DNA from: a virus
Lineage: Duplodnaviria > Heunggongvirae > Uroviricota > Caudoviricetes
DNA: 28,103 nucleotides
Virus record (IMG/VR): IMGVR_UViG_2529292905_000015
Reading direction: 5' to 3' (one strand)
Numbering within the stretch: position 1 is the stretch's first letter; each line of letters begins with the position of its first letter. Below, in pieces: positions 1 through 24,861 of this stretch. A model generated the notes under the pieces. The model did not search any database. It was not told where the DNA came from and saw only the letters and a list, made by a program, of their open reading frames with translations. Made by a program: the position numbers and the translations under genes.

Positions 1-1032
1 TTATTTGATTTCAATTTTGTCCCACTCCCTGCCTCTGTCATCACGATACTGTGATGCCATGGTGTCCGACTTATGCCCGAGAAGATGTTGAGCAAACTTA
101 TCGCTTATCTGCTTCTCATAGAGTCTTGCAGACAAACTGCGCAACTCGTGAAAGGTAGGCGGATCCCCTTCGAAGGAAAGACCTGATGCTTTTCGTGCGC
201 GCATAAAATACCTTGATACTGTGCCGGATGAAAGCGGTTCACGACGAGTAGATGCAATTATGGTTTCTCCGCCAAGAATCTCTTTGCATTTATCAAGTGT
301 TTCCTTCATTGATATCCCGAGAGCATCAACATGCAATGTTGTAGGGATGGCAATTTTTACGCCTGTTTTGCTTTGTTCGACATAAAGATATCCATCTACG
401 ATATCAGACCACTTCATTTCGCATAAATCACCAACTCGCTGCCCGGTAACAACAGCCAGTTCCATTGCAAGTCTGAGCCAACATGGTGATGATTCTGCTG
501 CTTGATAAATTTTCAGGTATTCGTCAGCCGTAAGTCTTGATCTCCTTACCTCTGATTTTGCTGCGCGAGTGGCAGCGACCGGGTTTGTTGTTATATGGCC
601 TTCAGCTATTGCCTCTCGGAATGCATCGCTCAGTGTTGATCTGATTAACTTGGCTGACGCCGCCTTGCCCTCGTCTATGTATCCATTGAGCATTGCCGCA
701 ATTTCTTTTGTGGTGATGTCTTCAAGTGGAGCATCAGGCAGCCCCCTCCTTATTGCTTTAATTTTGCTCATGTAATTTATGAGTGTCTTCTGCTTGATTC
801 CTCTGCTGGCGAGGATTTTTTCGTAGCGATCAAGCCATGAATGTAACGTAACAGAATTATCACTGTTGATTCTCGCTGTCAGAGGCTTGTGTTTGTGTCC
901 TGAAAATAACTCAATATTGGCCTGTATTGCTTCAGTGATTGCTATCCTCCTGTCTCGGCCTAAACCAAACTCTTTACCCGTCCTTGGGTCCCTGTAGCAG
1001 TAATATCCATTGTTTCTTATATAAAGGTTAGG
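1..1032 (-). pseudogene. int: Lambda-type tyrosine integrase (Int), truncated at its 5' end by IS629; lacks about the first 12 codons. The ORF-track extension to 1125 runs into the IS and begins on a TTG.
   Basis: Translation is near-identical to remembered lambda Int from PNLYIRNNGYYCYRDPRTGKEF through the C-terminal REWDKIEIK; stop codon at 1-3 on the minus strand; the IS629 terminal repeat starts at 1033 immediately after the PNLY codons. Confidence 0.85.
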
Positions 1033-1086
1033 TGAACCGCCCCGGGAATCCTGGAGACTAAACTCCCTGAGAAAGAGGTAAACAGG

Positions 1087-1413
1087 ATGACTAAAAATAC
1101 ACGTTTTTCCCCCGAGGTCCGTCAACGGGCAGTTCGTATGGTTCTGGAAAGTCAGGGCGAATATGACTCACAATGGGCGGCAATTTGTTCCATTGCCCCA
1201 AAGATTGGCTGTACGCCAGAGACTCTGCGTGTGTGGGTTCGTCAGCATGAGCGGGATACCGGGAGTGGTGATGGTGGATTCACCACCGCTGAACGTCAGC
1301 GTCTGAAAGAGCTGGAACGTGAAAATCGTGAACTGCGCCGCAGTAACGATATCCTTCGCCAGGCTTCCGCTTATTTTGCGAAGGCGGAGTTCGACCGCCT
1401 CTGGAAAAAATAA
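1087..1413 (+). CDS. IS629 transposase OrfA (helix-turn-helix DNA-binding subunit)
   Basis: 108 aa, [30 protein letters not shown]..., matches remembered IS629/IS1203 OrfA; ends in an A-run followed by TAATG that overlaps the OrfB start. Confidence 0.9.
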
Positions 1414-2300
1414 TGCCACTGCTGGATAAGCTGCGTGAGCAGTACGGGGTCGGACCGGTATGCAGTGAACTGCATATTGCCCCGTCAACGTATTACCACT
1501 GTCAGCAACAGCGACATCATCCTGATAAACGCAGTGCCCGTGCGCAGCGCGATGACTGGCTGAAGAGAGAGATACAGCGCGTATACGATGAAAATCATCA
1601 GGTGTACGGTGTGCGTAAAGTCTGGCGCCAGTTGTTACGCGAAGGTATCAGGGTGGCCAGATGTACAGTGGCGCGCCTCATGGCGGTTATGGGACTTGCC
1701 GGTGTTCTCCGGGGTAAAAAGGTCCGTACTACCGTCAGCCGGAAAGCCGTTTCCGCAGGCGACCGCGTAAACCGTCAGTTCGTGGCAGAACGTCCTGACC
1801 AGCTGTGGGTGGCTGATTTTACTTACGTCAGCACATGGCAGGGCTTCGTCTATGTGGCGTTCATCATTGATGTGTTTGCCGGATGCATCGTGGGGTGGCG
1901 AGTCTCATCGTCTATGGAAACGACATTCGTGCTGGATGCACTGGAGCAGGCGTTGTGGGCCCGTCGGCCGTCCGGCACAGTCCATCACAGTGATAAAGGT
2001 TCTCAGTATGTATCACTGGCCTATACGGAGCGACTAAAAGAAGCAAAACTGCTGGCATCAACAGGGAGTACAGGTGACTCGTATGACAACGCGATGGCGG
2101 AGAGCATCAATGGTCTTTACAAAGCGGAGGTAATACACCGTAAGAGCTGGAAAAACCGTGCAGAAGTGGAACTGGCCACACTCACGTGGGTGGACTGGTA
2201 TAACAATCGACGATTGCTGGGAAGGCTGGGTCATATCCCTCCGGCAGAAGCAGAAAAAGCTTATTATGCTTCCATCAGAAACGATGATCTGGCAGCCTGA
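1413..2300 (+). CDS. IS629 transposase OrfB (DDE catalytic subunit), in the -1 frame relative to OrfA; normally made as an OrfAB fusion by frameshifting
   Basis: 295 aa with an integrase-core DDE-type sequence (…WVADFTYV…HSDKGSQY…YDNAMAES…); the frame relationship to OrfA is typical of IS3-family elements. Confidence 0.9.
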   Translation: MPLLDKLREQYGVGPVCSELHIAPSTYYHCQQQRHHPDKRSARAQRDDWLKREIQRVYDENHQVYGVRKVWRQLLREGIRVARCTVARLMAVMGLAGVLRGKKVRTTVSRKAVSAGDRVNRQFVAERPDQLWVADFTYVSTWQGFVYVAFIIDVFAGCIVGWRVSSSMETTFVLDALEQALWARRPSGTVHHSDKGSQYVSLAYTERLKEAKLLASTGSTGDSYDNAMAESINGLYKAEVIHRKSWKNRAEVELATLTWVDWYNNRRLLGRLGHIPPAEAEKAYYASIRNDDLAA

Positions 2301-4643: not shown

Positions 4644-5603
4644 TTAAAAAAAGAAGGTGATTGCTCCATTTATAAATGAATAGTCATCCCCTGTCTTGAA
4701 TTCTGATGTTACTTTATTAAATGCTAGTGTGAAGGCTACAGGTGCATACCCAATTGTTGCGCCAACTTGATATTCATCAACAGTTTTGTTTAGCGATACT
4801 GTTGTTTGTTTCGTCTGTATTGTTTTTCCTTCGAGAGTATAGTTGCGATTGACATCTCGTCTTTCCATACCTGCAAAAATCTTGTATTTGAATCCGCTTG
4901 TATCGGACATATGCATTAAACCACGGGGAGCCAGCAGACCAAAGCCATTATCCGAATTGAAGGTTTTATCATTACCAATGGCAATGGTTGCGCCATATGC
5001 TACATATTGAAATAAGTTTCCAGTAACAGCAGAAACTTCAGGGTATAATCCAACATTAGCACCTAAAATATCCATACTTGGTGTCATGGATAGCATCCCT
5101 TTTACAGTATAACCGTAGCGATTCTCTATTTGATCATCCCATGCATGATATTTTTCTGCCCCAATAATCTCATGAGCTTTATTTTGTACTTTCTGACCGC
5201 CTGCGTCGGGGCCAACAACACCTATGTCAGTACCTAATCGATAGCGAATCCAGTCATTCGCAAGGGAGTTCCATTCAATACCAGTGTGAGTGTATGCACT
5301 AAAAGCTCTGTCTCCAGTTACAGCTGTGTTGTGTCTTTTATTACTGCCTGATGGAGAGTAAATATCTTGCGCAATATGGAGAGATAATTGGCTCGAGTCT
5401 GAGATATCGTGGCTATATCCCAGAAATAAGCCTTGTGAGTAATCATCTCTGTTTTCATGTTTATTGCCATAAATATCATTAAGTATTGGTTGAAACTTCC
5501 CTGCATCATCATTTGCTAATGATAATGCAAGGCTGTTCGCGATAGCTGAACACGTGGTAAATGACAGAGCAATAAAGACGCCAGCGATGACACTTTTTTT
5601 CAT
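4644..5603 (-). CDS. Outer-membrane beta-barrel protein, cargo gene; tentatively LpxR-like lipid A 3'-O-deacylase
   Basis: 319 aa; N-terminal signal peptide MKKSVIAGVFIALSFTTCSA; alternating amphipathic segments; C-terminal aromatic FFF typical of a beta-barrel signature; AT-rich with atypical codon usage; antisense to the flanking phage genes. Size and position recall the prophage-borne LpxR of EHEC, but this is from memory, not a sequence match. Confidence 0.7.
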   Translation of the reverse strand: MKKSVIAGVFIALSFTTCSAIANSLALSLANDDAGKFQPILNDIYGNKHENRDDYSQGLFLGYSHDISDSSQLSLHIAQDIYSPSGSNKRHNTAVTGDRAFSAYTHTGIEWNSLANDWIRYRLGTDIGVVGPDAGGQKVQNKAHEIIGAEKYHAWDDQIENRYGYTVKGMLSMTPSMDILGANVGLYPEVSAVTGNLFQYVAYGATIAIGNDKTFNSDNGFGLLAPRGLMHMSDTSGFKYKIFAGMERRDVNRNYTLEGKTIQTKQTTVSLNKTVDEYQVGATIGYAPVAFTLAFNKVTSEFKTGDDYSFINGAITFFF

Positions 5604-5993
5604 ATGTTATTGTCTTCCTTTTTTTGAATGGTGCGCGTATTTTACATACATGAGTTTGTAATACAAGGTGCGTAATCAATATGATGTTTTATAATTGCGT
5701 GAGACAATTGATTTATTCGTTTTTTATTGCGGTTTTTATTATCTTTTAATGTAACGGTGTTTTTATTAAGTGTGTTTGCGTGGTGTTTTATGTTTTTTAT
5801 AATTTTTATTTTATTAAATTTAAATGCATTAGTAATGGCTATTCTATATAGCAATATAAGAACTGTTACAAAAAAAGGGGGGGCAATTACAGGTAGTTAT
5901 GGATGATGAGTGAAACAGATATTGGAGAACCGGGGAATGAATGATGTCTGAGTCTTATATATCAGAACTCCTTCGCTGTCGCTGGGGGCTCCT
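5604..5993. promoter_or_regulatory. Strongly AT-rich divergent intergenic region with phased T-tracts (GTTTTTATT repeats); probable promoter region for the cargo gene and Q, and a plausible curved-DNA / H-NS target
   Basis: Repeated T5-6 tracts spaced roughly 10-12 bp apart between about 5690 and 5820; sits between divergent genes. H-NS binding is inferred from composition only. Confidence 0.4.
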
Positions 5994-6814: not shown

Positions 6815-6839
6815 ACCCGCTGCCGAGTGGGTTTTTTTT
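6815..6839 (+). terminator. tR'-like intrinsic terminator: 7-bp stem ACCCGCU / AGUGGGU (one G-U pair), GCCG loop, then eight T
   Basis: Hairpin plus T8 read directly from the sequence, about 35 nt downstream of the PR'-like -10. Confidence 0.7.
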
Positions 6840-9273: not shown

Positions 9274-9737
9274 GCAGAGTAACCGCGATTATCTCCGCTC
9301 TGGTTATCTGCATCATCGTCTGCCTGTCATGGGCGGTTAATCATTACCGTGATAACGCCATCGCCTATAAAGAACAGCGTGATAAAAAAGTCAGTGAGCT
9401 GAAGCAGGCGACCGCCACCATTACTGACATGCAGCAGCGCCAGCGTGCTGCTGATGCACTCGATGCTAAATACACGAAGGAGTTAGCTGATGCGAAAGCT
9501 AAAAATGATGCTCTTCGGCGCAAGCTTGATAATGGTGGTCGGGTGTTCGTCAAAGGAAAATGCCCTGTGCCATCCTCAGACGAAACCTCCAGCGCCTCCG
9601 GCATGGGCAATGATGCCACCGTCGAACTCTCTCCAGTTGCTGGACGAAACGTTCTCGGTATCCGGGACGGAATTATCCGCGACCAAACAGCACTGAGAAC
9701 GCTTCAGGAATACATCAGGACGCAATGCCTTCGATGA
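9270..9737 (+). CDS. Rz: Rz i-spanin (inner-membrane spanin subunit)
   Basis: N-terminal transmembrane segment ([20 protein letters not shown]) then a coiled-coil-like charged periplasmic domain; ATGA overlap with the endolysin stop; contains the embedded Rz1 frame. Confidence 0.8.
9490..9696 (+). CDS. Rz1: Rz1 o-spanin (outer-membrane lipoprotein), embedded in the +1 frame of Rz
   Basis: Lipobox ...IMVVGCSS and a proline-rich mature region ([13 protein letters not shown]); N-terminus MRKLKMML resembles lambda Rz1; lies entirely within Rz. Confidence 0.75.
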
Positions 9738-9910
9738 TAGCGATAATTTTACTCATCATCCTTCACATCTGGCTCTGTAGACAGGGTGGTGCTCACTTCT
9801 GGAGTGAATCATGGTTAAACATCTCATTGCTGATGCTTGATATTGAGCATCTGGCGCGCGGTAAGGGGCTGCGTTGAGATAAGAGCCAGTCATTAAAAAT
9901 ACCTGGATTT

Positions 9911-9936
9911 AGCCTCGCATTCGCGGGGCTTTTTTA
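9911..9936 (+). terminator. Intrinsic terminator-like hairpin AGCCUCGC-AUUC-GCGGGGCU followed by T5
   Basis: Read directly, about 170 bp downstream of Rz. Confidence 0.5.
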
Positions 9937-10354
9937 TTGCCATTACAAAAGCCACTCCCTACAGAGTGGCTTTGATAATGGCTTATACCCTACACGGGAT
10001 AACTTAACTGATATCCCTTTTAACGGATAAAGGTATTCAAGCCTGACACATCATGCGCTGTATCGTCGCTGTATTCCCGCATTAACCATGACCGTAGCCC
10101 GACGGGGAACTCCTTCTGCGCGAGTGTGCGGGAATAATCAAAAACGATGCACACCGGGTTTTTACCGCGCTAATGATTCGCGGGTTTGTCCCTCATGCTC
10201 GCCAGTCCTGTGCGGGGGTGGAAGAAACAGGACACTCACACAGATTCTTGTGGGTCGATGCTATTCCTTTCTGGATTATCCCGATGCCATTCATGCAAAG
10301 GCTGTATCAGACGTTCGTCATGGCTTTCAGGCTGACGGCTCCTCCCGGTGGGGT

Positions 10355-10551
10355 GGCCTGCCACGGGGCGGGAGCGTCGCGGAAAAAGGCTAGTTTTTGC
10401 ATTTTTATCGGCCACCATCATCTTTGCATCTTATTGATTATTAATGGTTATTTGTTTTTTGTATGTCGAATTGAGTGTTTTTTGTTCGACATCGAACGCG
10501 TTTTCTTAAAGTTGTTCGCACGATGCATGTTTAAAGCTCTCCGGAGGAAAT
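10355..10551. other. Probable cos region (cosN-like GGGGCGGGAGCGTCGCGG at 10365-10382, then an AT-rich cosB-like segment with short palindromes)
   Basis: GC-rich motif resembling the remembered lambda left end GGGCGGCGACCTCGCGGG; it lies about 187 bp upstream of the terminase small subunit start (lambda cosN to Nu1 is about 190 bp); downstream palindromes TGTCGAA...TTCGACA and TTCGACATCGAA. Confidence 0.45.
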
Positions 10552-11043
10552 ATGGATCATGAGTTGAAAAACCTGGTGCTGAATATTAATCAACTGGCGG
10601 CTTTATCTGGTCTGCACCGCCAGACTGTCGTGGCAAGACTGAAAAACATTCGTCCCGCTGGTGGACATGACAAACTCAAGCTATACCGGTTGACCGATAT
10701 TCTGACTGAATTTATGGGGTTACCACCGCCGGTTGCTGAGGGCGAAATGGATCCACATGAACGCAAAGCCTGGTATCAGTCTGAACGTGAGCGTCTTAAG
10801 TTCGAACAGGAAACGGCACAACTCATTCCGGCCAGTGATGTCAGACGGGAGTTTGCCATCTGGGCAAAAGCGGTCGTGCAGGTGCTGGAGACATTACCGG
10901 ATATTCTGGAACGTGACTGTGGTCTGCAGCCTGCCGCTGTGAGCCGTGTTCAGTCCATTATTGATGATCTGCGCGATCAGATAGCCCTGCGGGTGACCGA
11001 AGCAGGTGCGGATGATGAGGAGGAATTACAGCAGGAGGAGTAA
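10552..11043 (+). CDS. Terminase small subunit (Nu1-like function)
   Basis: 163 aa with a predicted N-terminal helix-turn-helix (LNINQLAALSGLHRQTVVARLKN) and an acidic C-terminus; GGAGGAAA Shine-Dalgarno; TAATG overlap with the large subunit; positioned directly after cos. Confidence 0.7.
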   Translation: MDHELKNLVLNINQLAALSGLHRQTVVARLKNIRPAGGHDKLKLYRLTDILTEFMGLPPPVAEGEMDPHERKAWYQSERERLKFEQETAQLIPASDVRREFAIWAKAVVQVLETLPDILERDCGLQPAAVSRVQSIIDDLRDQIALRVTEAGADDEEELQQEE

Positions 11044-13145: not shown

Positions 13146-13354
13146 ACCAGAATGATATCGAAGCCATGATTCAGCGTTATACGGAAGCTGAAATGGCGGT
13201 GCTGGACGGAAAATCCGTCACCTTTAATGGTCAGCAGATGACCATGGAAAACTTATCTGAGATCCGGCAGGGACGGCAGGAGTGGGAGCGCCGCCTTGCG
13301 GCTCTGATTACACGACGACGGGGGCATCCCGGGTACCGGCTGGCGAGGTTCTGA
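13142..13354 (+). CDS. Head-tail joining protein, gpW-like
   Basis: About 70 aa with a gpW-like pattern (…DGKSVTFNGQQMTMENLSEI…RRRGHPGY) comparable to the lambda W C-terminus RRRGPAGFYV; GGAGGA Shine-Dalgarno before ATG 13142. Confidence 0.7.
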   Translation: MNQNDIEAMIQRYTEAEMAVLDGKSVTFNGQQMTMENLSEIRQGRQEWERRLAALITRRRGHPGYRLARF

Positions 13355-14862
13355 TGGCAATTCTTGATGATGTGATTGGCGTTTTTTCACCAGGATGGAA
13401 AGCGGCAAGGCTGCGTTCCCGTGCGGTGATCCAGGCTTATGAGGCCGTAAAAACGACGCGGACACACAAAGCCCGGCGGGAAAACCGAACTGCCGGCCAG
13501 TTAAGCCAGTACGGGGCCGTGTCGTTACGTGAGCAGGCCCGTTACCTTGATAACAACCACGATCTGGTTATTGGTGTATTTGACAAGCTGGAAGAACGGG
13601 TGGTGGGGAAAAACGGGATTATTGTCGAGCCACATCCGGTATTACGCAATGGGGCCATTGCCCGTGATCTGGCAGCGGAGATACGCACCCGATGGAGTGA
13701 ATGGTCTGTCAGTCCGGAAGTCACCGGGCAGTTTACCCGTCCGATGCTGGAACGTCTGATGCTGCGTACCTGGCTGCGCGATGGTGAGGTGTTTGCCCAG
13801 ATGGTTTCCGGGCGCATAAACAGCCTGACGCCTTCTGCCGGTGTTCATTTCTGGCTGGAGGCGCTCGAGCCAGACTTTATTCCCATGACCAGTGATGAGA
13901 GCAACAGGCTGAATCAGGGCGTGTTTGTTGATGACTGGGGGCGTCCCGAAAAATATCTGGTGTATAAAAGCCGTCCCGTATCCGGACGGCAGATGGAAAC
14001 CAAAGAAGTGGATGCAGAGCGAATGCTGCATCTTAAATTTGTTCGCCGTCTGCACCAGATGCGCGGGACGTCTTTGTTGTCCGGTGTGCTGATCCGCCTC
14101 AGTGCCCTGAAAGAGTATGAGGATTCTGAGCTGACTGCAGCAAGGATCGCCGCTGCTCTGGGGATGTACATCCGGAAAGGCGATGGGCAGAGCTATGAAC
14201 CGGATGGTAATGGCAGCAAGGATAAGGAACGCGAGCTTACCATTCAGCCAGGCATTATTTACGACGATCTGAAACCCGGCGAAGAAATCGGAATGGTGAA
14301 GTCGGATCGCCCCAATCCTAACCTTGAAACTTTTCGTAATGGTCAGTTGCGTGCCGTGGCGGCGGGCAGTCGTCTGAGTTTTTCCAGTACAGCGCGCAAC
14401 TATAACGGCACTTACAGCGCCCAGCGTCAGGAGCTGGTTGAATCCACTGATGGCTACCTGATCCTGCAGGACTGGTTTATTGGTGCCGTCACCCGCCCGA
14501 TGTATCGTGCCTGGCTGAAACAGGCTGTGGCATCCGGTGTTATCAGGCTACCCCGCGATCTTGACCGTTCTTCACTGTATACCGCGGTGTATTCCGGACC
14601 GGTGATGCCGTGGATTGACCCTGTTAAGGAGGCTGAGGCCTGGAAAATTCAGATTCGTGGTGGAGCAGCGACAGAATCAGACTGGGTACGTGCAGGTGGT
14701 CGTAATCCGGATGATGTCAAACGTCGGCGCAAGGCCGAAATTGATGAAAACCGCAAGCTGGATCTGGTATTTGATACCGATCCGGCCAGTGATAAAGGAG
14801 GCAGCAGTGCCGCAACGAAACGACAGGAGCCGCAGCACACCGACGACCAGTCCGAAGAATAA
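13354..14862 (+). CDS. Portal protein (not the lambda gpB type)
   Basis: 502 aa; located between gpW and the prohead protease; ATG overlaps the W stop; size and acidic C-terminus are typical of portal proteins. The track ORF starts upstream at 13282. Confidence 0.75.
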   Translation: MAILDDVIGVFSPGWKAARLRSRAVIQAYEAVKTTRTHKARRENRTAGQLSQYGAVSLREQARYLDNNHDLVIGVFDKLEERVVGKNGIIVEPHPVLRNGAIARDLAAEIRTRWSEWSVSPEVTGQFTRPMLERLMLRTWLRDGEVFAQMVSGRINSLTPSAGVHFWLEALEPDFIPMTSDESNRLNQGVFVDDWGRPEKYLVYKSRPVSGRQMETKEVDAERMLHLKFVRRLHQMRGTSLLSGVLIRLSALKEYEDSELTAARIAAALGMYIRKGDGQSYEPDGNGSKDKERELTIQPGIIYDDLKPGEEIGMVKSDRPNPNLETFRNGQLRAVAAGSRLSFSSTARNYNGTYSAQRQELVESTDGYLILQDWFIGAVTRPMYRAWLKQAVASGVIRLPRDLDRSSLYTAVYSGPVMPWIDPVKEAEAWKIQIRGGAATESDWVRAGGRNPDDVKRRRKAEIDENRKLDLVFDTDPASDKGGSSAATKRQEPQHTDDQSEE

Positions 14863-14875
14863 TTCCTGGTTCAGG

Positions 14876-15808
14876 ATGCAGGCTGGTCACCAGAGTGACG
14901 CGGATATTTATATTTATGACGAGATTGGTTTCTGGGGTGTTACAGCGAAGCAGTTTATCAGTGATCTGAATGCACTGGGCGATATCACCCACATTAATCT
15001 CCATATCAATTCACCGGGTGGCGATGTCTTTGAAGGCATCGCCATTTTTAATGCACTGAAAACACATGGTGCGTCCATTACCGTTTATGTCGACGGTGTG
15101 GCGGCGTCAATGGCGTCGGTCATTGCGATGGTGGGAAAACCGGTCATTATGCCGGAAAACTCCTTCATGATGATTCATAAACCATTTGGCTTTACGGGCG
15201 GTGATGCGGAGGACATGCGCACCTATGCCGACCTGCTCGATAAAGTTGAGGCGGTTCTGTTACCCGCTTATGCACAGAAAACCGGGAAAGCCACCGATGA
15301 AATTGCTGCCATGCTGGCGGATGAGACCTGGATGTCCGGTGCCGAATGTCTGGCACATGGATTTGCTGATCAGGTGACGCCAGCCGTTAAGGCAATGGCA
15401 TGTATTCAGTCAAAACGTACAGAGGAATTTAAAAAGATGCCGGAATCCATTCGAAACATGATTACTCCGCCACGCAACAGTGCTCCACGCGTACAGGATG
15501 ATGGACCTGCAGCCTCCCGGACGCCAGTGCAGGCAGCAGCACCTGTGGTGGATGAAAACAGTATCCGTGCGCAGGTACTGGCAGAGCAAAAAGCGCGTGT
15601 AAACGGTATTAATGATCTGTTTGCCATGTTTGGCGGGCGTTATCAGACGCTGCAGGCTCAGTGTCTTGCCGATCCTGAATGTTCGCTGGAGCAGGCCCGC
15701 GAAAAGCTGTTGAACGAGATGGGGCGCGAGTCCACGCCATCTAATAAAAATACCCCGGCTCATATTTATGCCGGAAACGGTAATTTTGTGGGGGATGGGA
15801 TCCGCTAG
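14876..15808 (+). CDS. Prohead maturation protease, ClpP/S49-like (possibly with a C-terminal scaffold region)
   Basis: ClpP-fold-like core with GVAASMASVIAMVG and …MIHKP…; follows the portal. The track ORF begins earlier at 14615 but overlaps the portal; ATG 14876 lies just after the portal stop. Confidence 0.75.
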   Translation: MQAGHQSDADIYIYDEIGFWGVTAKQFISDLNALGDITHINLHINSPGGDVFEGIAIFNALKTHGASITVYVDGVAASMASVIAMVGKPVIMPENSFMMIHKPFGFTGGDAEDMRTYADLLDKVEAVLLPAYAQKTGKATDEIAAMLADETWMSGAECLAHGFADQVTPAVKAMACIQSKRTEEFKKMPESIRNMITPPRNSAPRVQDDGPAASRTPVQAAAPVVDENSIRAQVLAEQKARVNGINDLFAMFGGRYQTLQAQCLADPECSLEQAREKLLNEMGRESTPSNKNTPAHIYAGNGNFVGDGIR

Positions 15809-15814
15809 GCGCTG

Positions 15815-16834
15815 ATGGCGCGTGCCGGATTTGAAAAAACCGAACGTGATAATGTCTACAACGGGATGACCCTGCGTGAATATGCCCGTATGTCACTGAC
15901 TGAACGGGGTATTGGGGTTTCCAGTTATAACCCGATGCAGATGGTCGGTGCGGCGTTCACACACAGTACGTCTGACTTCGGTAATATTCTGCTGGATGTT
16001 GCGAACAAAGCCATTCTGCAGGGCTGGGAAGATGCCCCTGAAACCTATGAACAGTGGACGCGGAAAGGTCAGTTGTCTGATTTTAAAATTGCCCATCGTG
16101 TGGGTATGGGGGGCTTCAGTGCTCTGCGTCAGGTGCGTGAAGGGGCGGAATATAAATACGTCACCACCGGAGATAAACAGGCCACTATTGCACTGGCGAC
16201 CTATGGCGAGCTGTTCAGTATCACCCGTCAGGCCATTATCAATGATGATCTGAATATGCTGACCGATGTCCCGATGAAACTGGGCCGTGCGGCGAAATCC
16301 ACTATTGCCGATCTGGTTTATGCCATTCTGACGTCTAACCCGAAAATCTCCACAGATAATGTAAGTCTGTTCGATAAAGCGAAACATGCAAACGTACTGG
16401 AGAGCGCTGCAATGGACGTGGCATCGCTGGATAAAGCCCGCCAGTTGATGCGCGTTCAGAAAGAGGGGGAGCGTCATCTGAATATTCGTCCTGCGTTCGT
16501 ACTGGTACCGACGGCGATGGAGTCTGTTGCTAACCAGGTCATTCGCTCCTCAAGTGTCAAGGGGGCTGACATTAACGCCGGTATTATTAACCCGGTGAAA
16601 GATTTTGCGACCGTTATTGCAGAGCCTCGTCTTGATGATAACAGCCAGACCACCTTCTACCTGGCTGCGTCAAAAGGCTCCGATACGATTGAAGTGGCTT
16701 ATCTCAACGGTGTGGATACGCCATATATTGATCAGATGGAGGGCTTCAGTGTGGATGGCGTGACAACGAAAGTGCGTATTGACGCCGGTGTCGCGCCAGT
16801 TGATCACCGCGGTCTGGTGAAATGTACGGCGTAA
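15815..16834 (+). CDS. Major capsid protein (HK97-fold type, non-lambda gpE)
   Basis: 339 aa directly after the protease, followed by a terminator hairpin; start codon uncertain (an alternative is ATG 15866). Confidence 0.75.
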   Translation: MARAGFEKTERDNVYNGMTLREYARMSLTERGIGVSSYNPMQMVGAAFTHSTSDFGNILLDVANKAILQGWEDAPETYEQWTRKGQLSDFKIAHRVGMGGFSALRQVREGAEYKYVTTGDKQATIALATYGELFSITRQAIINDDLNMLTDVPMKLGRAAKSTIADLVYAILTSNPKISTDNVSLFDKAKHANVLESAAMDVASLDKARQLMRVQKEGERHLNIRPAFVLVPTAMESVANQVIRSSSVKGADINAGIINPVKDFATVIAEPRLDDNSQTTFYLAASKGSDTIEVAYLNGVDTPYIDQMEGFSVDGVTTKVRIDAGVAPVDHRGLVKCTA

Positions 16835-16857
16835 ACGTCGCAGACAACAACTCTGAT

Positions 16858-16877
16858 GGCCCGTAAGGGCTTTTTTT
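16858..16877 (+). terminator. Terminator-like hairpin GGCCC-GTAA-GGGCT followed by T7, downstream of the capsid gene
   Basis: Read directly from the sequence. Confidence 0.5.
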
Positions 16878-16920
16878 GTACCTGAAATCAGCCCCTGAAC
16901 GGGGCTGTGCGGAGACAGTT

Positions 16921-17244
16921 ATGGCAAAGAATTTTGTAGAAGAAGGAAAAACGGTGGCGATTGTTGCCAGTGCAGCCATCAGCAGCGGAGATCTGGTGCA
17001 GGTGGGCGATGTTTTTGCGGTGGCGCTGACCGATATTCCACAGGGTGAAACAGGCGACGGCATGACCGAAGGTGTGTTTATGCTGCCTAAGCTGAAAACG
17101 GATGACATGAAAACGGGTAAGAAGGTTTATCTGAAGTCAGGAAAAGTTCAGCTGACTAACAGCGGCTCTGATCCGCTGGTCGGGGTTGTCTGGGCAGATG
17201 CCGGAACCAGTGCAGAAGAAGTGCCGGTAAAACTCAATGTCTGA
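16921..17244 (+). CDS. Small head protein, possibly a head decoration/cement protein (DUF2190-like)
   Basis: 107 aa immediately after the major capsid gene; assignment is from position and a vague family resemblance only. Confidence 0.5.
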   Translation: MAKNFVEEGKTVAIVASAAISSGDLVQVGDVFAVALTDIPQGETGDGMTEGVFMLPKLKTDDMKTGKKVYLKSGKVQLTNSGSDPLVGVVWADAGTSAEEVPVKLNV

Positions 17245-17512
17245 TCCCTTTTCCCGGCTGGCAGCGCGTATGGATGCTATCACGGTCAGAAAGATGGGAA
17301 AGACAGCCTCGATTAATGATGTCGATATGACTGTGATCCCGGGAGAAACACTGGCAGAGCTGAATGCTCTGTCCGGACCTGCGGTCTCTCTGGTGGTGTT
17401 TTCTTCGGGATACCGCCCACGGCGCGGGGATCGCGTTGTTTATGACGGACAACAATGGACGGTCACACGGCATGAACGCTTTAACGGTAAGCCAATGATC
17501 TTTATTGAGTAA
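17237..17512 (+). CDS. Head-tail connector, gpFII-like
   Basis: 91 aa; …YRPRRGDRVVYDGQQWTV… resembles the RRGD-containing C-terminal region of lambda FII; immediately precedes gpZ. Confidence 0.55.
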   Translation: MSDPFSRLAARMDAITVRKMGKTASINDVDMTVIPGETLAELNALSGPAVSLVVFSSGYRPRRGDRVVYDGQQWTVTRHERFNGKPMIFIE

Positions 17513-17523
17513 AGAGGTGTGGG

Positions 17524-18102
17524 ATGAAGGGGCTTGAGAATGCCATCCGCAATCTGAACAGCCTTGATACCCGTATGGTGCCACAGGCCAGCGCATGGGC
17601 GATAAACCGTGTGGCACAGAAAGCGGTCTCGGTTGCCACCCGGCAGGTTGCCGGGAATACCGTTGCGGGAGATAACCAGGTGAAAGGGATCCCCCTGAAA
17701 CTGGTTCGTCAGCGTGTCCGGGTGTTTAAAGCCAGTCCGTCAGGAAAAATGACGGCCAGGATCCGCGTTAACCGGGGCAATCTGCCCGCCATTAAGCTGG
17801 GGACAGCCCGGGTCAGACTGGCCCAGCGTGGTGGAAAACTGCAGTACCGTGGCAGTGTGCTGAAGGTGGGTAAATATCTTTTCCGGGATGCGTTTATTCA
17901 GCAACTGGCGAATGGTCGCTGGCATGTGATGCGGCGTATTGATGGCAAAAATCGTTACCCCATTGATGTGGTGAAAATCCCGCTGTCCGGACCGCTGACA
18001 CAGGCATTTGAAGATGCCCGCGACCGCATCATTGCTGCGGAAATGCCGAAACAGCTGGGGTATGCACTGAAACAACAACTGAGGTTATGGCTGACCCGAT
18101 GA
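17524..18102 (+). CDS. Z: Tail completion protein gpZ
   Basis: 192 aa; NGRWHVMRRIDGKNRYPIDVVKIPL matches lambda gpZ NGRWHVMQRVAGKNRYPIDVVKIPM; AGAGGTG Shine-Dalgarno. Confidence 0.85.
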   Translation: MKGLENAIRNLNSLDTRMVPQASAWAINRVAQKAVSVATRQVAGNTVAGDNQVKGIPLKLVRQRVRVFKASPSGKMTARIRVNRGNLPAIKLGTARVRLAQRGGKLQYRGSVLKVGKYLFRDAFIQQLANGRWHVMRRIDGKNRYPIDVVKIPLSGPLTQAFEDARDRIIAAEMPKQLGYALKQQLRLWLTR

Positions 18103-18500
18103 ACCGACATACACAAATCCGCCAGGTCGTACTGGCACGCCTTCGGGAACAGTGTGGAGACAGCGCCACGTTTTTTGACGGGCTTCCGGCATTTGTTGAT
18201 GCGCAGGAACTGCCTGCCGTGGCGGTGTGGCTGAGTGATGCTCAGTACACCGGAAAAATGACGGATGAAGATGACTGGCAGGCTGTTCTGCATATTGCTG
18301 TCTTCATCCGGGCACAGGCACCGGATTCAGAGCTGGATATGTGGATGGAGAGCACCATTTTCCCGGCCCTGAATGATGTATCGGCACTTTCCGGACTCAT
18401 CGACACCCTGATCCCACTCGGTTTTAACTATCAACGTGATAATGAGATGGCCACCTGGGCGATGGCGGAAATCACGTACCAGATCACGTACACGAATTAA
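18099..18500 (+). CDS. U: Tail terminator protein gpU
   Basis: …ATFFDGLPAFVDAQELPAVAVWLSDAQYTG…LHIAVFIRAQAPDSELDMWMES… parallels lambda gpU; ATGA overlap with Z. The track start is 18087. Confidence 0.85.
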   Translation: MNRHTQIRQVVLARLREQCGDSATFFDGLPAFVDAQELPAVAVWLSDAQYTGKMTDEDDWQAVLHIAVFIRAQAPDSELDMWMESTIFPALNDVSALSGLIDTLIPLGFNYQRDNEMATWAMAEITYQITYTN

Positions 18501-18510
18501 GGAGGTGGTA

Positions 18511-19254
18511 ATGACCACGCCAAATCCACTGGCAAAGACGAAAGGTGCGGGGACGACGTTCTGGATGTATACCGGCAACGGCGATGCGTTTGCGAACCCT
18601 TTGTCGGACACTGACTGGCTGCGTCTTGCGATGGTGAAGGATCTGCAACCTGGCGAAATGACCGCTGATGCAGAAGATGACACTTATCTCGATGATGAAG
18701 ATGCAGACTGGAAAACGACAACCCAGGGGCAGAAATCCGTTGGTGATACTTCGGCGACGCTGGCCTGGCGTCCGGGTGACAGCGGGCAGAAAAAACTGGT
18801 TCAGTTGTTCGACTCCGGTGAAGTCTGCGCGTTTCGTATCAAATATCCCAACGGCACTGTTGATGTTTTCCGCGGCTGGCTGAGCTCACTGGGTAAAACC
18901 ATTGCCTCAAAAGACGTGATGACCCGCACAGTGAAAATCAGCGGTGTGGGGCGTCCATATCTGGCAGAGGAGGGCACTGAAACTGTGGGCGTTACCGGGC
19001 TGACGGTGGCACCGGCATCCGCCAGTGTCAATGTGGGAGCAACCACCACGCTGACCTTTACAGTAAAACCTGACGGAGCCAGTGACAAAGCGATCAGTGT
19101 GCATTCGACAGATCCACAGACAGCCACTGTGACCCTGAACGGACTTGTGGCCACGGTGAAAGGCGTGAAGCAGGGCAGCGTCAGCATTGTGGGCATGACC
19201 GCTGACGGGAATTTTGTGGCTGTGGCTGCGGTGACTGTCAGCGCTGCAGGTTAA
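18511..19254 (+). CDS. V: Major tail protein gpV with a C-terminal Ig-like (Big_2-type) domain
   Basis: AAGGAGGT Shine-Dalgarno before ATG 18511; N-terminal domain followed by a Thr/Val-rich Ig-like C-terminal region (…TVAPASASVNVGATTTLTFTVKPDGA…); followed by a strong terminator. Confidence 0.85.
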   Translation: MTTPNPLAKTKGAGTTFWMYTGNGDAFANPLSDTDWLRLAMVKDLQPGEMTADAEDDTYLDDEDADWKTTTQGQKSVGDTSATLAWRPGDSGQKKLVQLFDSGEVCAFRIKYPNGTVDVFRGWLSSLGKTIASKDVMTRTVKISGVGRPYLAEEGTETVGVTGLTVAPASASVNVGATTTLTFTVKPDGASDKAISVHSTDPQTATVTLNGLVATVKGVKQGSVSIVGMTADGNFVAVAAVTVSAAG

Positions 19255-19274
19255 CAGGACGATACTCATCATTT

Positions 19275-19298
19275 GCCCCGGTTATCCGGGGCTTTTTT
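19275..19298 (+). terminator. Intrinsic terminator GCCCCGG-TTAT-CCGGGGC followed by T6, directly after the major tail gene
   Basis: Perfect 7-bp GC stem and T6, read directly. Confidence 0.65.
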
Positions 19299-19311
19299 GC
19301 AGGTGGAGAAC

Positions 19312-19701
19312 ATGATGTTTCTGAAACAGGGCACGTTTAATTATGAAAAGCAGTCCGTGGTGCTCAGTGAGCTGTCCGGGCTGCAGAGAATTGAATATCT
19401 GGCGTTTGTTCAGCAGCGAACGGCAAAGTTTGATGCCGAAGAGGGAGAACTGCCGGAGGCTGAACGACAGATTGCTTTTCTGCGGATGGGGATGGATATC
19501 AATGCCTGGCTGGTTTCCCGCTCACTGTGGAATGCGGAACAGTCTCAGGATGTTGAGACGCTTTGCGCATCCGTTATTACAACATGGTCGTATGATGCCC
19601 TGAGAGCGGGGGCGGAGATGGTTCTGTCGCTGAGCGGTATGGGAGCCATTGAGAATGCCGGGGATTTGGAGCATGAGGTGCTGACGCCGGAAAAGTCCTG
19701 A
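19312..19701 (+). CDS. G: Tail assembly chaperone gpG
   Basis: MMFLKQGTFNYEKQSVVLSELSGLQRIEYLAF… parallels lambda gpG MFLKTESFEHNGVTVTLSELSALQRIEHLAL; AGGTGGAG Shine-Dalgarno. Confidence 0.8.
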   Translation: MMFLKQGTFNYEKQSVVLSELSGLQRIEYLAFVQQRTAKFDAEEGELPEAERQIAFLRMGMDINAWLVSRSLWNAEQSQDVETLCASVITTWSYDALRAGAEMVLSLSGMGAIENAGDLEHEVLTPEKS

Positions 19702-20039
19702 CGCGGGAAATGCAGTTTGTCATGCGGCTTGCCCGGGAGTTCCGGCGGGCAGACTGGCGGCGGATGCTGTCGGAAATGTCGGCCACTGAGCTTGGTGAGT
19801 GGGGCGATTATTTCCGGATGCAGAGCTTCAGTGATGTGTGGATGGATGCGCAGTTTGCCTCGCTGAAGGCATTGATCGTGAGAATGGTGTCCGGTAGCAG
19901 TGATGCTGCGGTGGCTGATTTCAGCCTTTTACCGGAAGAGAACGGGATACCGGAGCGAACGGACGAAGAACTGATGCATCTTGGGGAAGGTATTTCCGGA
20001 GGTGTGCGTTATGGACCAGATAGCCAACCTGGTCATTGA
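19677..20039 (+). CDS. T: gpT portion of the G-T tail assembly chaperone, expected to be expressed only as a -1 frameshift fusion from G
   Basis: The frame is open from 19677, -1 relative to G and overlapping its last codons; G/T frameshifting is conserved in lambda-like tail modules; candidate slip region GGAAAAG at 19689-19695. Confidence 0.65.
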   Translation, partial: GADAGKVLTREMQFVMRLAREFRRADWRRMLSEMSATELGEWGDYFRMQSFSDVWMDAQFASLKALIVRMVSGSSDAAVADFSLLPEENGIPERTDEELMHLGEGISGGVRYGPDSQPGH

Positions 20040-21963
20040 TTTGGGGATTGATGCGGCAGAGTTTAAAAATGAAATTCCCCGTATCAAAAACCTTCTGAAT
20101 GGTGCAGCCAGCGATGCAGAACGGTCTTCTGCCCGTATGCAGCGTTTTATGGAGCGTCAGACTCAGGCCGCCCGGCAGACAATGCAGGCGGCTTCTTCGG
20201 CTGCAACAGCCGCATCCGTCCATGCGCAGACGGTGGAGAAGAGCGCACAGGCTCATGAACGCATGGCCCGCGAGGTGGAGCAAACCCGCCAGCGTATGGA
20301 GGCACTGAGCCAGAAAATGCGCGAGGAACAGGCGCAGGCCATGGCTCTGGCGGAGGCTCAGGATAAAGCGGCTGCTGCGTTTTATCGTCAGATTGACAGT
20401 GTGAAACAGGCCGGTGCGGGGCTGCAGGAATTACAGCGTATTCAGCAACAGATCCGACAGGCCAGAAACAGTGGCGGGATTGGTCAGCAGGATTATCTGG
20501 CGCTGATTTCTGAGGTTACGGCGAAAACCCGTGTTCTTACACAGGCTGAGGAAGAGGCTACCCGACAGAAAGTGGCGTTTATCCGTCAGCTTAAAGAGCA
20601 GGCAACCCGCCAGAATCTTTCTTCTTCTGAGTTGCTTCGTGCTAAGGCTGCCCAGCTGGGGGTAAGCAGTGCTGCAGAAGTGTATATCCGCAAAATGGAG
20701 CAGGCAGGAAAAGCCACGCATTCGCTGGGTCTGAAAAGTGCAGCAGCCCGTCAGGAGATAGGCGTTCTGATAGGTGAACTGGCCCGCGGTAATTTAGGTG
20801 CGCTGAGGGGATCCGGAATAACGCTGGCTAACCGTGCCGGGTGGATAGACACACTGATGTCACCGAAAGGCATGATGCCAGGAGCGGTTATTGGCGGTAT
20901 TGCCGCGGCTGTCTATGGTCTGGGTAAAGCCTGGTATGACGGTCAGAAGGAGGGGGAAGAATTTAACCGCCAGCTGTCGCTGACGGGGCATTATGCCGGA
21001 GTCACTGCCGGGCAGCTGTGGACGCTCAGTCGTGCTATTTCCGGGAATGGTATCACGCAACATGCTGCAGCCGGTGCGCTGGCTCAGGTGGTGGGGAGTG
21101 GTGCATTTCGTGGAAACGATATCGGTATGGTGGCGAGAGCTGCCGCACAGATGGAGCGATCGGTTGGCCAGTCGGTCAGCGATACCATAAATCAGTTTAA
21201 GCGGCTGAAGGATGATCCTGTAAATGCCGCGAAGGCTCTGGACAATGAGCTGCATTTTCTTACTGCCACTCAGCTTGAGCAGATACGCGTCCTTGGGGAG
21301 CAGGGGCGGTCCAGTGATGCTGCACGGATAGCCATGTCTGCACTGGCAGAGGAAACCGGTCGGCGTACTGCGGATATTGATAATAACCTCAATGCGCTTG
21401 GCAGTACGCTGAAGTATCTGTCTGATTTGTGGAGTCGTTTCTGGGATGCGGCCATGAATATTGGTCGTGAAGACTCGCTGGATGAACAGATTGCCGCTTT
21501 ACAGGAGAAAGTGTCGCGGGCGAAAAGACTCCCCTGGACGGCATCATCTTCTCAGGTTGAATACGATCAGCAGCGTCTTAACGATCTTCAGGAGAAAAAA
21601 CGCCAGAAGGATTTGCAGGATGCAAAAGAGCAGGCAGAGCGGAATTATCAGGAGCAACAGAAACGCCGTAATGCTGAAAATGCTGCACTGAACCGGATGA
21701 ATGAAACGGAAGCAGCACGACATCAGCGTGAAATAGCGCGTATTAATGCCATGCAGTACGCCGATCAGGCTGTCAGGGATGCGGCGATACAACGTGAAAA
21801 TGAACGTTACGAGAAAGCCCTGGCATCCGGTAAGAAAAAACACGCGAACCCCGTAATGATGAGGCCACCCGGTTATTGCTGCAGTACAGTCAGCAACAGG
21901 CACAGGTGGAAGGACAGATTGCTGCTGCCAGACAGTCAGCAGGCATTGCCACGGAAAGGATGA
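20011..21963 (+). CDS. H: Tail tape measure protein gpH, N-terminal fragment (frame interrupted near 21835; remainder in the next feature)
   Basis: Coiled-coil-rich, Ala/Gln/Arg-rich sequence typical of tape measure proteins; GGAGGTG Shine-Dalgarno before ATG 20011; overlaps the T end as in lambda. After the A6 tract this frame reads only about 40 further codons (…ANPVMMRPPGYCCSTVSNRHRW…) before its stop. Confidence 0.8.
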   Translation: MDQIANLVIDLGIDAAEFKNEIPRIKNLLNGAASDAERSSARMQRFMERQTQAARQTMQAASSAATAASVHAQTVEKSAQAHERMAREVEQTRQRMEALSQKMREEQAQAMALAEAQDKAAAAFYRQIDSVKQAGAGLQELQRIQQQIRQARNSGGIGQQDYLALISEVTAKTRVLTQAEEEATRQKVAFIRQLKEQATRQNLSSSELLRAKAAQLGVSSAAEVYIRKMEQAGKATHSLGLKSAAARQEIGVLIGELARGNLGALRGSGITLANRAGWIDTLMSPKGMMPGAVIGGIAAAVYGLGKAWYDGQKEGEEFNRQLSLTGHYAGVTAGQLWTLSRAISGNGITQHAAAGALAQVVGSGAFRGNDIGMVARAAAQMERSVGQSVSDTINQFKRLKDDPVNAAKALDNELHFLTATQLEQIRVLGEQGRSSDAARIAMSALAEETGRRTADIDNNLNALGSTLKYLSDLWSRFWDAAMNIGREDSLDEQIAALQEKVSRAKRLPWTASSSQVEYDQQRLNDLQEKKRQKDLQDAKEQAERNYQEQQKRRNAENAALNRMNETEAARHQREIARINAMQYADQAVRDAAIQRENERYEKALASGKKKHANPVMMRPPGYCCSTVSNRHRWKDRLLLPDSQQALPRKG

Positions 21964-23075
21964 CAGAAGCGCATAAACAGCTTCTGGCTCTGCAGCAGCG
22001 CATCAGCGACCTGGACGGGAAAAAACTGACGGCAGATGAAAAGAGTGTGCTGGCCCGTAAAGATGAACTGATTCAGGCACTGACGCTGCTGGATGTAAAA
22101 CAGCAGGAGCTTCAGAAACAGACGGCACTCAACGAGCTGAAGAAAAAAACAATTCAGCTGACCAGTCAACTGGCTGAAGAAGAGCGCGCTCAGCGTCAGC
22201 AACATGACCTGGATATCGCCACGGTGGGTATGGGTGATCAGCAGCGACAGCGATATCAGGTACAACTGAGTCTTCGCCAGAAATACCAGCAACAGCTGGA
22301 GCAGTTGAGGCGGGATAGTGAGCAGAAAGGGACATATAACACGGATGACTACAGAAAGGCCGAGCAGGCGCTGACGGAGAGCCTGAACCGACAACTGAAT
22401 GAGAATCGCCGTTACTGGCAACAGCTTGAAGTTGTACAGGGTAACTGGAAAAACGGAGTCCTGCGTGCATTTCAGGATTTTACCGTGGATGCAGATAATA
22501 CGGCAGAAACAGCAGAACAGGTGTTCTCGTCAGCCTTCAGCAACATGGGAAATGGCCTGGCAACTTTTGTCACTACCGGCAAACTCAATTTCAAATCCTT
22601 CACCTCTTCTGTGCTGTCAGATATGGCGAAAATCCTGGCGCAGGCAACCATGATGAAATCGATAAAAGGGATTGGCAGTGTACTGGGATTTGATCTCAGC
22701 AGCCTTTCCCTGAATGCCAATGGGGGGATTTATCAGTCTGCTGATTTGAGTCGTTACAGTGGCACGGTGGTTAACCGTCCGACGTTTTTTGCTTTTGCAA
22801 AAGGCGCGGGTGTGATGGGGGAAGCGGGACCTGAAGCCATTCTGCCATTGCGTCGTGGTGCTGACGGTAAGCTGGGGGTTGTGGCGGATATTGGGGGTTC
22901 AGGTATGGCGATGTTTTCCCCGCAGTACAACATCGAGATCAATAACGATGGCACGAACGGGCAGATAGGTCCGGCTGCCCTGAAGGCGGTTTATGACCTC
23001 GGGAAAAAAGCGGCAGCGGACTTTATGCAACAGCAGGCCCGTGATGGTGGTCGGTTAAGTGGAGCATATCGGTAA
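21876..23075 (+). CDS. H: Tail tape measure protein gpH, C-terminal fragment (this frame is open from 21834)
   Basis: C-terminus …NIEINNDGTNGQIGPAALKAVYDLGKKAAADFMQQQARDGGRLSGAYR closely matches the lambda gpH C-terminus (…NNDGTNGQIGPAALKAVYDMARKGARDE…); stop overlaps the gpM start (TAATG). Confidence 0.8.
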   Translation: MLQYSQQQAQVEGQIAAARQSAGIATERMTEAHKQLLALQQRISDLDGKKLTADEKSVLARKDELIQALTLLDVKQQELQKQTALNELKKKTIQLTSQLAEEERAQRQQHDLDIATVGMGDQQRQRYQVQLSLRQKYQQQLEQLRRDSEQKGTYNTDDYRKAEQALTESLNRQLNENRRYWQQLEVVQGNWKNGVLRAFQDFTVDADNTAETAEQVFSSAFSNMGNGLATFVTTGKLNFKSFTSSVLSDMAKILAQATMMKSIKGIGSVLGFDLSSLSLNANGGIYQSADLSRYSGTVVNRPTFFAFAKGAGVMGEAGPEAILPLRRGADGKLGVVADIGGSGMAMFSPQYNIEINNDGTNGQIGPAALKAVYDLGKKAAADFMQQQARDGGRLSGAYR

Positions 23076-23404
23076 TGGAGACGTTTCACTGGAAAGTGCG
23101 CCCGGATATGAATGTGGTATCAGAGCCGAAAGTGGTGACAGTGAAGCTGGGCGATGGTTATGAACAGCGTCGTGCGGCGGGACTGAATAACCAGTTGTCG
23201 ACTTACAGCGTGACGATACGTGTTCGTAAATGTGAACACCCATCTTTAAAAGCCTTTCTGGAACGGCACGGTGGCGTCCGTGCATTTCAGTGGACGCCAC
23301 CTTATGACTGGAAACCGATCAGGGTGGTTTGTCGTAAATGGTCGGCAAGCGTGGGGGCGCTGTGGGTAACCATAACGGCAGATTTTGAACAGGTCGTGGC
23401 ATAG
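23075..23404 (+). CDS. M: Minor tail protein gpM
   Basis: 109 aa, same length and position as lambda gpM; METFHWKVRPDMNVVSEPKV…. Confidence 0.9.
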   Translation: METFHWKVRPDMNVVSEPKVVTVKLGDGYEQRRAAGLNNQLSTYSVTIRVRKCEHPSLKAFLERHGGVRAFQWTPPYDWKPIRVVCRKWSASVGALWVTITADFEQVVA

Positions 23405-23413
23405 GAGGCTCTG

Positions 23414-24112
23414 ATGCAGGATATTCCACAGGAAACACATCATGAGACGACACGCCTCACTCAGTCAGCCCAGGCGGTGCTCTGGGAAATCGATCTGACA
23501 GAGGTCGGTGGTGAACGTTATTTTTTCTGTAATGAGCAGAACGAAAAAGGTGAGCCGGTTACCTGGCAGGGGCGGCAGTATCAGGCATACCCCATTCAGG
23601 GGACGGGATTTGAACTGAACGGCAAGGGCAGTGCTGCCCGTCCGACACTGACGGTTTCTAACCTGCACGGCATGGTCACGGGGATGGCGGAAGACCTGCA
23701 GAGTCTGGTCGGCGGAACGGTGGTCCGGCGTAAGGTTTACGCCCGTTTTCTGGATGCGGTGAACTTCGTCAACGGAAACAGCGACGCCGATCCGGAGCAG
23801 GAGGTGATCAGCCGCTGGCGCATCGAGCAGTGCAGCGAACTGAGTGCGGTGAGTGCCTCCTTTGTACTGTCCACGCCAACGGAAACGGATGGCGCTGTTT
23901 TTCCGGGACGTATCATGCTGGCCAACACCTGCACCTGGACCTATCGCGGTGATGAGTGCGGTTATCACGGTCCGGCAGTCGCGGATGAATATGACCAGCC
24001 GACGTCCGATATCACGAAGGATAAATGCAGCAAATGCCTGAGTGGCTGTAAGTTTCGCAATAACCTCGGCAACTTTGGCGGCTTCCTTTCCATTAACAAA
24101 CTTTCACAGTGA
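23414..24112 (+). CDS. L: Minor tail protein gpL
   Basis: 232 aa, same length as lambda gpL, with a C-terminal Cys cluster (CTWTYRGDECGYHG…CSKCLSGC); AGGAGG Shine-Dalgarno. Confidence 0.9.
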   Translation: MQDIPQETHHETTRLTQSAQAVLWEIDLTEVGGERYFFCNEQNEKGEPVTWQGRQYQAYPIQGTGFELNGKGSAARPTLTVSNLHGMVTGMAEDLQSLVGGTVVRRKVYARFLDAVNFVNGNSDADPEQEVISRWRIEQCSELSAVSASFVLSTPTETDGAVFPGRIMLANTCTWTYRGDECGYHGPAVADEYDQPTSDITKDKCSKCLSGCKFRNNLGNFGGFLSINKLSQ

Positions 24113-24861
24113 ATCCCATGACAGAGACAGAATCAGCGATTCTGGCGCACGCCCGGCGATGTGCGCCAGCGGAGTCGTGCGGCTTCGTGGTGAGAACGCC
24201 GGAAGGGGAAAGATATTTTCCCTGCGTGAATATCTCCGGTGAGCCGGAGGCGTATTTCCGGATGTCGCCGGAGTACTGGCTGCGGGCAGAGATGCAGGGT
24301 GAGATTGTGGCGCTGGTCCACAGCCACCCCGGTGGTCTGCCCTGGCTGAGTGAGGCCGACCGGCGGCTGCAGGTGCAGAGTGATTTGCCGTGGTGGCTGG
24401 TCTGCCGGGGAGTGATTCATAAGTTCCGCTGTGTGCCGCATCTTACCGGGCGGCGCTTTGAGCACGGGGTGACGGACTGTTACACGCTGTTCCGGGATGC
24501 TTACCATCTGGCGGGGATTGAGATGCCGGATTTTCATCGCGAGGATGACTGGTGGCGTAACGGTCAGAATCTCTATCTGGATAATCTGGAGGCCACAGGG
24601 CTGTATCAGGTGCCGTTGTCAGCGGCGCAGCCGGGCGATGTACTGCTGTGCTGTTTTGGTTCATCGGTGCCGAATCATGCCGCCATTTACTGTGGTGACG
24701 GCGAGCTGCTGCACCATATTCCTGAACAACTGAGCAAACGAGAGAGGTATACCGACAAATGGCAGCGACGCACACACTCCCTCTGGCGTCACCGGGCATG
24801 GCACGCATCTGCCTTTACGGGGATTTACAACGATTTGGCCGCCGCATCGACCTTCGTGTAA
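24109..24861 (+). CDS. K: Tail assembly protein gpK (JAB/MPN plus NlpC/P60-like); start is GTG 24109 or ATG 24118
   Basis: HSHP metalloprotease-type motif (…VALVHSHPGG…) and a Cys/His-containing C-terminal domain; follows gpL with an overlapping stop/start. Confidence 0.85.
   Translation: MNPMTETESAILAHARRCAPAESCGFVVRTPEGERYFPCVNISGEPEAYFRMSPEYWLRAEMQGEIVALVHSHPGGLPWLSEADRRLQVQSDLPWWLVCRGVIHKFRCVPHLTGRRFEHGVTDCYTLFRDAYHLAGIEMPDFHREDDWWRNGQNLYLDNLEATGLYQVPLSAAQPGDVLLCCFGSSVPNHAAIYCGDGELLHHIPEQLSKRERYTDKWQRRTHSLWRHRAWHASAFTGIYNDLAAASTFV

Follow-up and report, generated by a model that had tools for sequence, protein, structure and literature searches.

The stretch of DNA analysed here (hereafter, the window) is 28,103 nucleotides long and corresponds to the final 28103 nt of AIFU01000004.1, a contig of a draft genome from the DEC collection (GCA_000249575.2, 2011-12). 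The prophage in this window is the O55:H7 form of Sakai Sp3/CP-933K, from E. coli, and occupies the site between ybhC and ybhB; Sakai Sp3 (CP-933K) itself carries nleB2, nleC, nleH, and nleD. The features that bear on the analysis are as follows.

1..1125, minus strand: integrase gene, directly beside an IS3-family element
1087..1413 (orfA) and 1413..2300 (orfB), within window positions 1-2342: IS3-family element, adjoining the integrase gene
5619..5625: T7 tract, T8 in 12 of the 12 relatives compared; intergenic, 16 nt upstream of the lpxR start
6832..6839: T8 tract, T9 in the closest kin and 7, 8, or 9 bases long across closed genomes
14807..16834: ClpP-like prohead protease/major capsid fusion gene, with TAG at 15806-15808 (codon 334)
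19315..19701, plus strand: tail assembly chaperone gene G, directly upstream of the tape measure gene (PF06894/PF06223 for G and T)
19710..20039, plus strand: tail assembly chaperone gene T, likewise directly upstream of the tape measure gene
20011..23075, plus strand: whole tape measure gene, lambda gpH-like, the equivalent of Sakai ECs_0837, with a 1-nt deficit in the window assembly
20011..21963, plus strand: N-terminal fragment ORF, 610 authentic codons and a 40-codon out-of-frame tail (PF06791)
21831..21833, plus strand: TAA that, on reading the sequence, shuts the C-terminal frame upstream, so that this frame is open from 21834
21834..23075, plus strand: C-terminal tape measure frame (PF24622, PF09718); the deposited CDS starts from the ATG at 21960 and encodes 371 aa
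21835..21840, plus strand: A6 tract, made up of two AAA codons in frame behind AAG; relatives have A7
23075..23404, plus strand: gpM-like minor tail gene, downstream of the tape measure gene (PF05939/PF05100 for M and L)
23414..24112, plus strand: gpL minor tail gene, also downstream of the tape measure gene

The tape measure gene lies between the G/T chaperone genes and the M/L minor tail genes, which is the expected lambda-like order. An uninterrupted ORF of about 1000 aa, as expected of a gpH-like tape measure protein, is absent from the window and present in its relatives. The N-terminal frame, listed as an ORF at 19981..21963 with the true ATG at 20011, reads ASGKKKHANPVMMRPPGYCC and ends with a stop codon at 21961-21963, 40 codons past the A run; it was deposited as a separate 650-aa CDS (EHV43050.1 / EHV50771.1). 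Around the A6 run at 21835-21840, the local reading is TCC GGT AAG AAA AAA CAC GCG AAC. From 21834, the C-terminal frame, which reads EKTREPRNDEATRLLLQYSQQQAQVEGQ (EKTREPRNDEATRLLLQYSQQQ), remains open as far as 23075. In Pfam searches, the N-terminal part matches TMP_2 (PF06791, 2.9e-49), and the C-terminal part matches both TMP_4 (PF24622, 3.3e-17) and Tape_meas_lam_C (PF09718, 1.3e-22).

When one A is added to the window, a single 1021-aa ORF results whose product matches WP_000371991.1, the protein of closed O55:H7 genomes, in full and Sakai ECs_0837 at all but 2 aa; the homologous CDS, of 3066 nt and 1021 aa, is intact in Sakai and in the closed O55:H7 genomes. Thus, the preliminary description of this DNA located the A6 tract, the TAA at 21831-21833, the tail of about 40 codons and the C-terminal frame correctly, and its expectation that a change of one nucleotide would yield an ORF of about 1020 aa is borne out. 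As judged from the sequence, the two-ORF layout is no chance pattern of ORFs: a single base separates it from an intact gene that is identical in all other respects.

Two further observations concern the surroundings of this gene. The T frame is in the -1 position relative to G (window 19680-19712), as expected for the G/GT chaperone frameshift, and in the same interval before the G stop codon there is no GGGAAAG heptamer, only GAA AAG, that is, an A_AAG tetramer. As in Sakai Sp3, lpxR (4644..5603, minus strand) is an insert, flanked by a truncated antiterminator remnant on one side and by a second Q gene, this one intact, on the other.

Other lesions of the prophage

Comparison with closed DEC5A shows that, in the window, the whole stretch from int to ren/ninB is replaced by an IS3-family element, with the loss of the early genes xis, exo/bet/gam, cIII, the repressor gene, cII, O, and P. 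The element beside int is presumably IS629-like. In the protease/capsid fusion gene, codon 334 is CAG in Sakai and DEC5B and TAG in the window. This nonsense codon is common to most closed O55:H7 genomes, where it is annotated as an 'internal stop', and because it is shared in this manner, it is inherited and real, unlike the A6 tract. The earlier characterization of the prophage as decaying therefore holds, given the IS-associated loss of the early region and the TAG inside the protease/capsid gene.

This setting bears directly on one explanation of the split, namely, a genuine A7>A6 deletion that arose by replication slippage and inactivated the tape measure gene of a defective, effector-carrying prophage in the course of neutral decay. 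The product of such a deletion would be a 650-aa fragment, tails would not be assembled, and the gene would be an ordinary pseudogene. Because the prophage has lost its early region and carries TAG in the protease/capsid gene, selection to keep H intact is absent, and a real frameshift there would be neutral in a prophage that is already defective.

At least 24 contigs have the 371-aa C-terminal ORF called on its own. Some of the contigs sharing this ORF show a tape measure gene that is internally deleted or rearranged, which represents other routes of decay: one contig fuses gpG, at about window position 19569, to the tape measure sequence at about 21891, and another is missing the region around 21653-21929.

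Differences from the nearest kin are confined to homopolymer runs

A few SNPs (3391A, 13496G, 15290G, 19603A, and others) set the window apart from the closed O55:H7 genomes, as does the lack of a single base at each of two positions, 5619 and 21835; all of these are private to the window. Two of the private alleles, both non-synonymous, gpG 19603A and NinG 3391A, were used to pick the nearest kin; no contig longer than 1 Mb was found among the carriers of either allele. The gpG allele is present in GCA_012773115.1, GCA_012531395.1, GCA_003333865.1, and the Logan assemblies ERR271261 and SRR10357295, all of which encode an intact 1021-aa tape measure protein; in four of these (GCA_012773115.1, GCA_012531395.1, ERR271261, and SRR10357295), the extra A is the sole difference from the window over 5.6-15.3 kb. 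The carriers of the NinG allele (GCA_002190835.1, GCA_012531395.1, GCA_012773115.1, and Logan SRR3884820) are identical to the window over 3.9-6.4 kb, save for the T-runs at 5619 (T8 vs T7) and 6832 (T9 vs T8).

Taken over positions 2345-8704 and 9315-24641 (21.7 kb), the kin and the window differ by 0 substitutions and 3 one-base contractions, and in each of these the window is the shorter: T8>T7 at 5619, T9>T8 at 6832, and A7>A6 at 21835. Every difference falls within a run that is at least 7 bases long in the kin, and the frequency of contraction climbs with run length, from 0 of 32 6-mers and 1 of 11 7-mers to 1 of 2 8-mers and the single 9-mer in the 21.7 kb. In the 7.9 kb of chromosomal flank on the same contig, there are 0 indels relative to the closed genomes, but with just two 7-mers this flank says nothing about the error rate. 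A comparison of tract length among related strains, proposed in the preliminary description as a check on the split, thus gave A7 in the closest kin and in the closed O55:H7 relatives alike.

Substitutions at zero together with three contractions make a spectrum that is unexpected for near-identical clones and expected for under-calling; with every difference between the draft and its closest relatives lying in a long single-base run, a sequencing error is the most likely source of the split. For a genuine deletion, a spectrum of 0 substitutions vs 3 homopolymer contractions over 21.7 kb is an unlikely outcome of real divergence. Nevertheless, homopolymers of 7 or more bases are known indel hotspots, AAAAAAA is depleted in E. 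coli genes (Sharma et al.), and one of the three runs, the T-run at 6832, does vary among closed genomes (7/8/9).

Distribution of the A6 tract

The exact 650-aa truncated product is on record in four contigs, namely, AIFU01000004.1, AIFS01000017.1, and the Logan contigs SRR094170 and SRR094152. AIFS01000017.1 belongs to the DEC5C draft (GCA_000249535.2), from the same project as AIFU. The SRR094170 contig is identical to the window, A6 included, and the SRR094152 contig has two of the SNPs that separate the DEC5C draft from the window. The DEC5C draft has the same A6 and, over 14.2 kb, 9 SNPs relative to the window; over 14.1 kb, it is identical to closed RM12579, TB182A, and DEC5D, except at the A run, where the closed genomes have A7. 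Its further differences from these closed genomes are 3 SNPs in the final 110 nt of the contig, where repeats have probably collapsed. AIFQ and AIFT, two more drafts of the project, have A7 and, over 14.1 and 13.6 kb, show no difference from closed DEC5A and DEC5D, respectively. On the O55:H7 background, then, the variant follows the project and not the phylogeny, being found only in AIFU, AIFS, and the two matching re-assemblies of SRA runs; none of the nine closed O55:H7 genomes has A6, and those compared show A7 or an intact 1021-aa gene.

Near their ends, the DEC drafts switch to divergent (paralogous prophage) tail-gene sequence, from positions 14147 and 13578 of the respective draft sequences, or show clustered SNPs, which points to collapsed repeats or chimeric joins involving the several lambdoid prophages that these strains carry.

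Because A6 occurs on two O55:H7 backgrounds that have A7 twins, a real origin would require the same mutation to have arisen twice, independently, in two strains of a single project that are not sisters. This requirement, along with A7 in the nine closed O55:H7 genomes (the tract or the intact gene, in those compared) and in at least four kin assemblies, weighs against a genuine deletion. The error reading has a requirement of its own, namely, that of the three 7-mers in the tail region, the same one was stochastically miscalled twice. Given that AIFQ and AIFT carry A7, any error at the A-run site would be stochastic and not systematic; a systematic platform error at this exact site is ruled out by the same two drafts.

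Beyond the O55:H7 background, A6 is a rare allele, at about 0.1% or less. The best matches to positions 21400-22300 in complete E. coli genomes are all one base longer than the window. An identical A7 72-mer was found in 381 complete-genome records vs a single record with the identical A6 71-mer, that of the ETEC isolate L3_E36, in which the gene is annotated as 'frameshifted'. All 18 isolated phages that possess this stretch, including Ayreon, mEp460, cdtI, phi458, and Tritos, have A7 (72 bases). The complete genome of strain A2 contains A6 on an O157-type background, with one SNP in the 71-mer; its neighbouring T, L, and K genes are flagged as frameshifted too, a likely sign of indel errors in the A2 assembly. 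On other backgrounds, A6 was detected in three ENA assemblies, which represent one lineage, and in Logan SRR30896051 and SRR495243. Across the gene, these carriers are 27-51 nt from the window and 19-51 nt from one another. Each of the three A6 backgrounds tested has complete-genome relatives that are identical over 1.2 kb but have A7. The candidate explanation of A6 as a single inherited allele is ruled out by the distances of 19-51 nt between carriers and by the A7 twins of the three tested backgrounds.

These occurrences speak for the genuine-deletion reading and against under-calling: A6 is found again on at least four other backgrounds, beside A7 complete-genome relatives identical over 1.2 kb, and one A6 lineage is present in three separate ENA assemblies, which, from contig names suggestive of MEGAHIT or SPAdes, are probably short-read data. 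Thus, real A6 alleles probably exist, and A7>A6 slippage very probably does occur in nature at low frequency.

Origin of the split and comparison with known systems

In our assessment, the tape measure gene is most likely split because one base of A7 was under-called in the draft AIFU01000004.1. Under this explanation, the bacterium itself would carry A7, and with it the ordinary lambda-type tape measure gene (1021 aa) found in the O55:H7 form of Sp3/CP-933K, and one A would have been dropped from the run of seven at the level of reads, breaking the frame in the draft. As the cause, we infer a homopolymer error in the reads, probably those of 454 pyrosequencing. Logan SRR094170, apparently assembled from the same reads, also has A6, which places the deficit in the majority of the reads and argues against a slip of the assembler. 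The same centre sequenced other E. coli genomes with 454 Titanium 3-kb paired-end reads and the Celera assembler (PMC3491183, 2012). The AIFU contig continues through the multicopy IS3-family element, whereas all kin contigs break at 2314-2345; this read-through and the paralogue switching of AIFQ and AIFT after about 14 kb are circumstantial evidence that fits an overlap-type assembly with longer reads and mate pairs.

The preliminary description had listed three alternatives, a homopolymer error, a genuine inactivating mutation, and a slippage-prone, phase-variable site. The first is favoured by the contractions relative to the kin and by the A6 of the second draft on another background. The second fits the decayed prophage, but the evidence from the kin and from the second draft counts against it, so that a genuine deletion is less likely than error and, in our assessment, rather unlikely overall.

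The third alternative implies a functional site, where DNA slippage in the A run would toggle tail production or where a -1 ribosomal or transcriptional slip would yield a little full-length protein; this we regard as very improbable. Going by the codons, exactly the wild-type 1021-aa protein would result if tRNA-Lys slipped by -1 on the second AAA codon, and there is an A_AAA tetramer within the tract. However, the in-frame context, G_AAA_AAA_C, lacks an X_XXY_YYZ heptamer, and Z_ZZN tetramers without a stimulator give 0.147% vs a background of 0.112%, A_AA.A being the weakest among six pseudoknot-responsive tetramers (PMC4066793). No stimulatory structure was found in the 100 nt downstream (MFE of -25.5 vs a shuffle mean of -27.5 kcal/mol, z = +0.59). 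In lambda-like phages, the frameshift among the tail genes is expected between G and T, upstream of H and not inside it. Furthermore, the two-frame layout is not conserved, the relatives and all the isolated phages having one ORF with A7, and variation of tract length is infrequent among relatives (exact A6 in 1 vs exact A7 in 381 complete genomes). A programmed frameshift was considered and rejected, there being no heptamer, no downstream structure, and no conserved split; with A7 nearly universal and neither an in-frame slippery heptamer nor a downstream structure at the site, the proposal of a phase-variable site is likewise not supported.

A related scenario, to which we also assign a very low probability, is that A6 is real and recurs because the tape measure gene in question, a widespread lambdoid one, has a slippage hotspot in its A7 tract, with the A6 prophages being leaky. 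If so, rare -1 slippage would restore the wild-type protein, and the tract would act as a crude on/off or dimmer switch for tails.

With under-calling as the favoured explanation, the deposited 650-aa and 371-aa tape measure proteins most likely do not exist, which calls for caution in annotation: split CDSs of this kind spread to protein databases and raise the counts of prophage pseudogenes. Were the frameshift real, it would add one more lesion, and nothing known of effector-carrying prophages of the Sp3/CP-933K type would be altered. The finding is ordinary under the error and the genuine-deletion readings alike.

The site can be compared with four known systems. Programmed -1 sites (dnaX, A_AAA_AAG; IS3/IS1; lambda G/GT) resemble it in having an A-run over lysine codons and a -1 slip that joins two frames, but the window lacks their in-frame heptamer, stimulator, and conserved split. 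The tape measure gene of Sp3/CP-933K shares with the window the ybhC-ybhB locus (the lambda attB region) and the gene order G-T-H-M-L-K-I-J, and differs in being one ORF with A7, in contrast to the two ORFs with A6 in the window. The pool of defective O157/O55 prophages, like the window, carries several lesions, Sakai having a broken portal gene, int, and bet; the lesions of this pool are, however, shared by descent among closed genomes, whereas A6, on the O55:H7 background, is limited to just two drafts, both from one project. Draft homopolymer miscalls, such as 454 under-calls and those in unpolished long-read assemblies, resemble the window in that one-base contractions, more frequent with run length, are its sole differences from the nearest kin, and strain A2 likewise shows A6 amid several neighbouring genes flagged as frameshifted; a point of contrast is that the A-run was called correctly in two sister drafts from the project.
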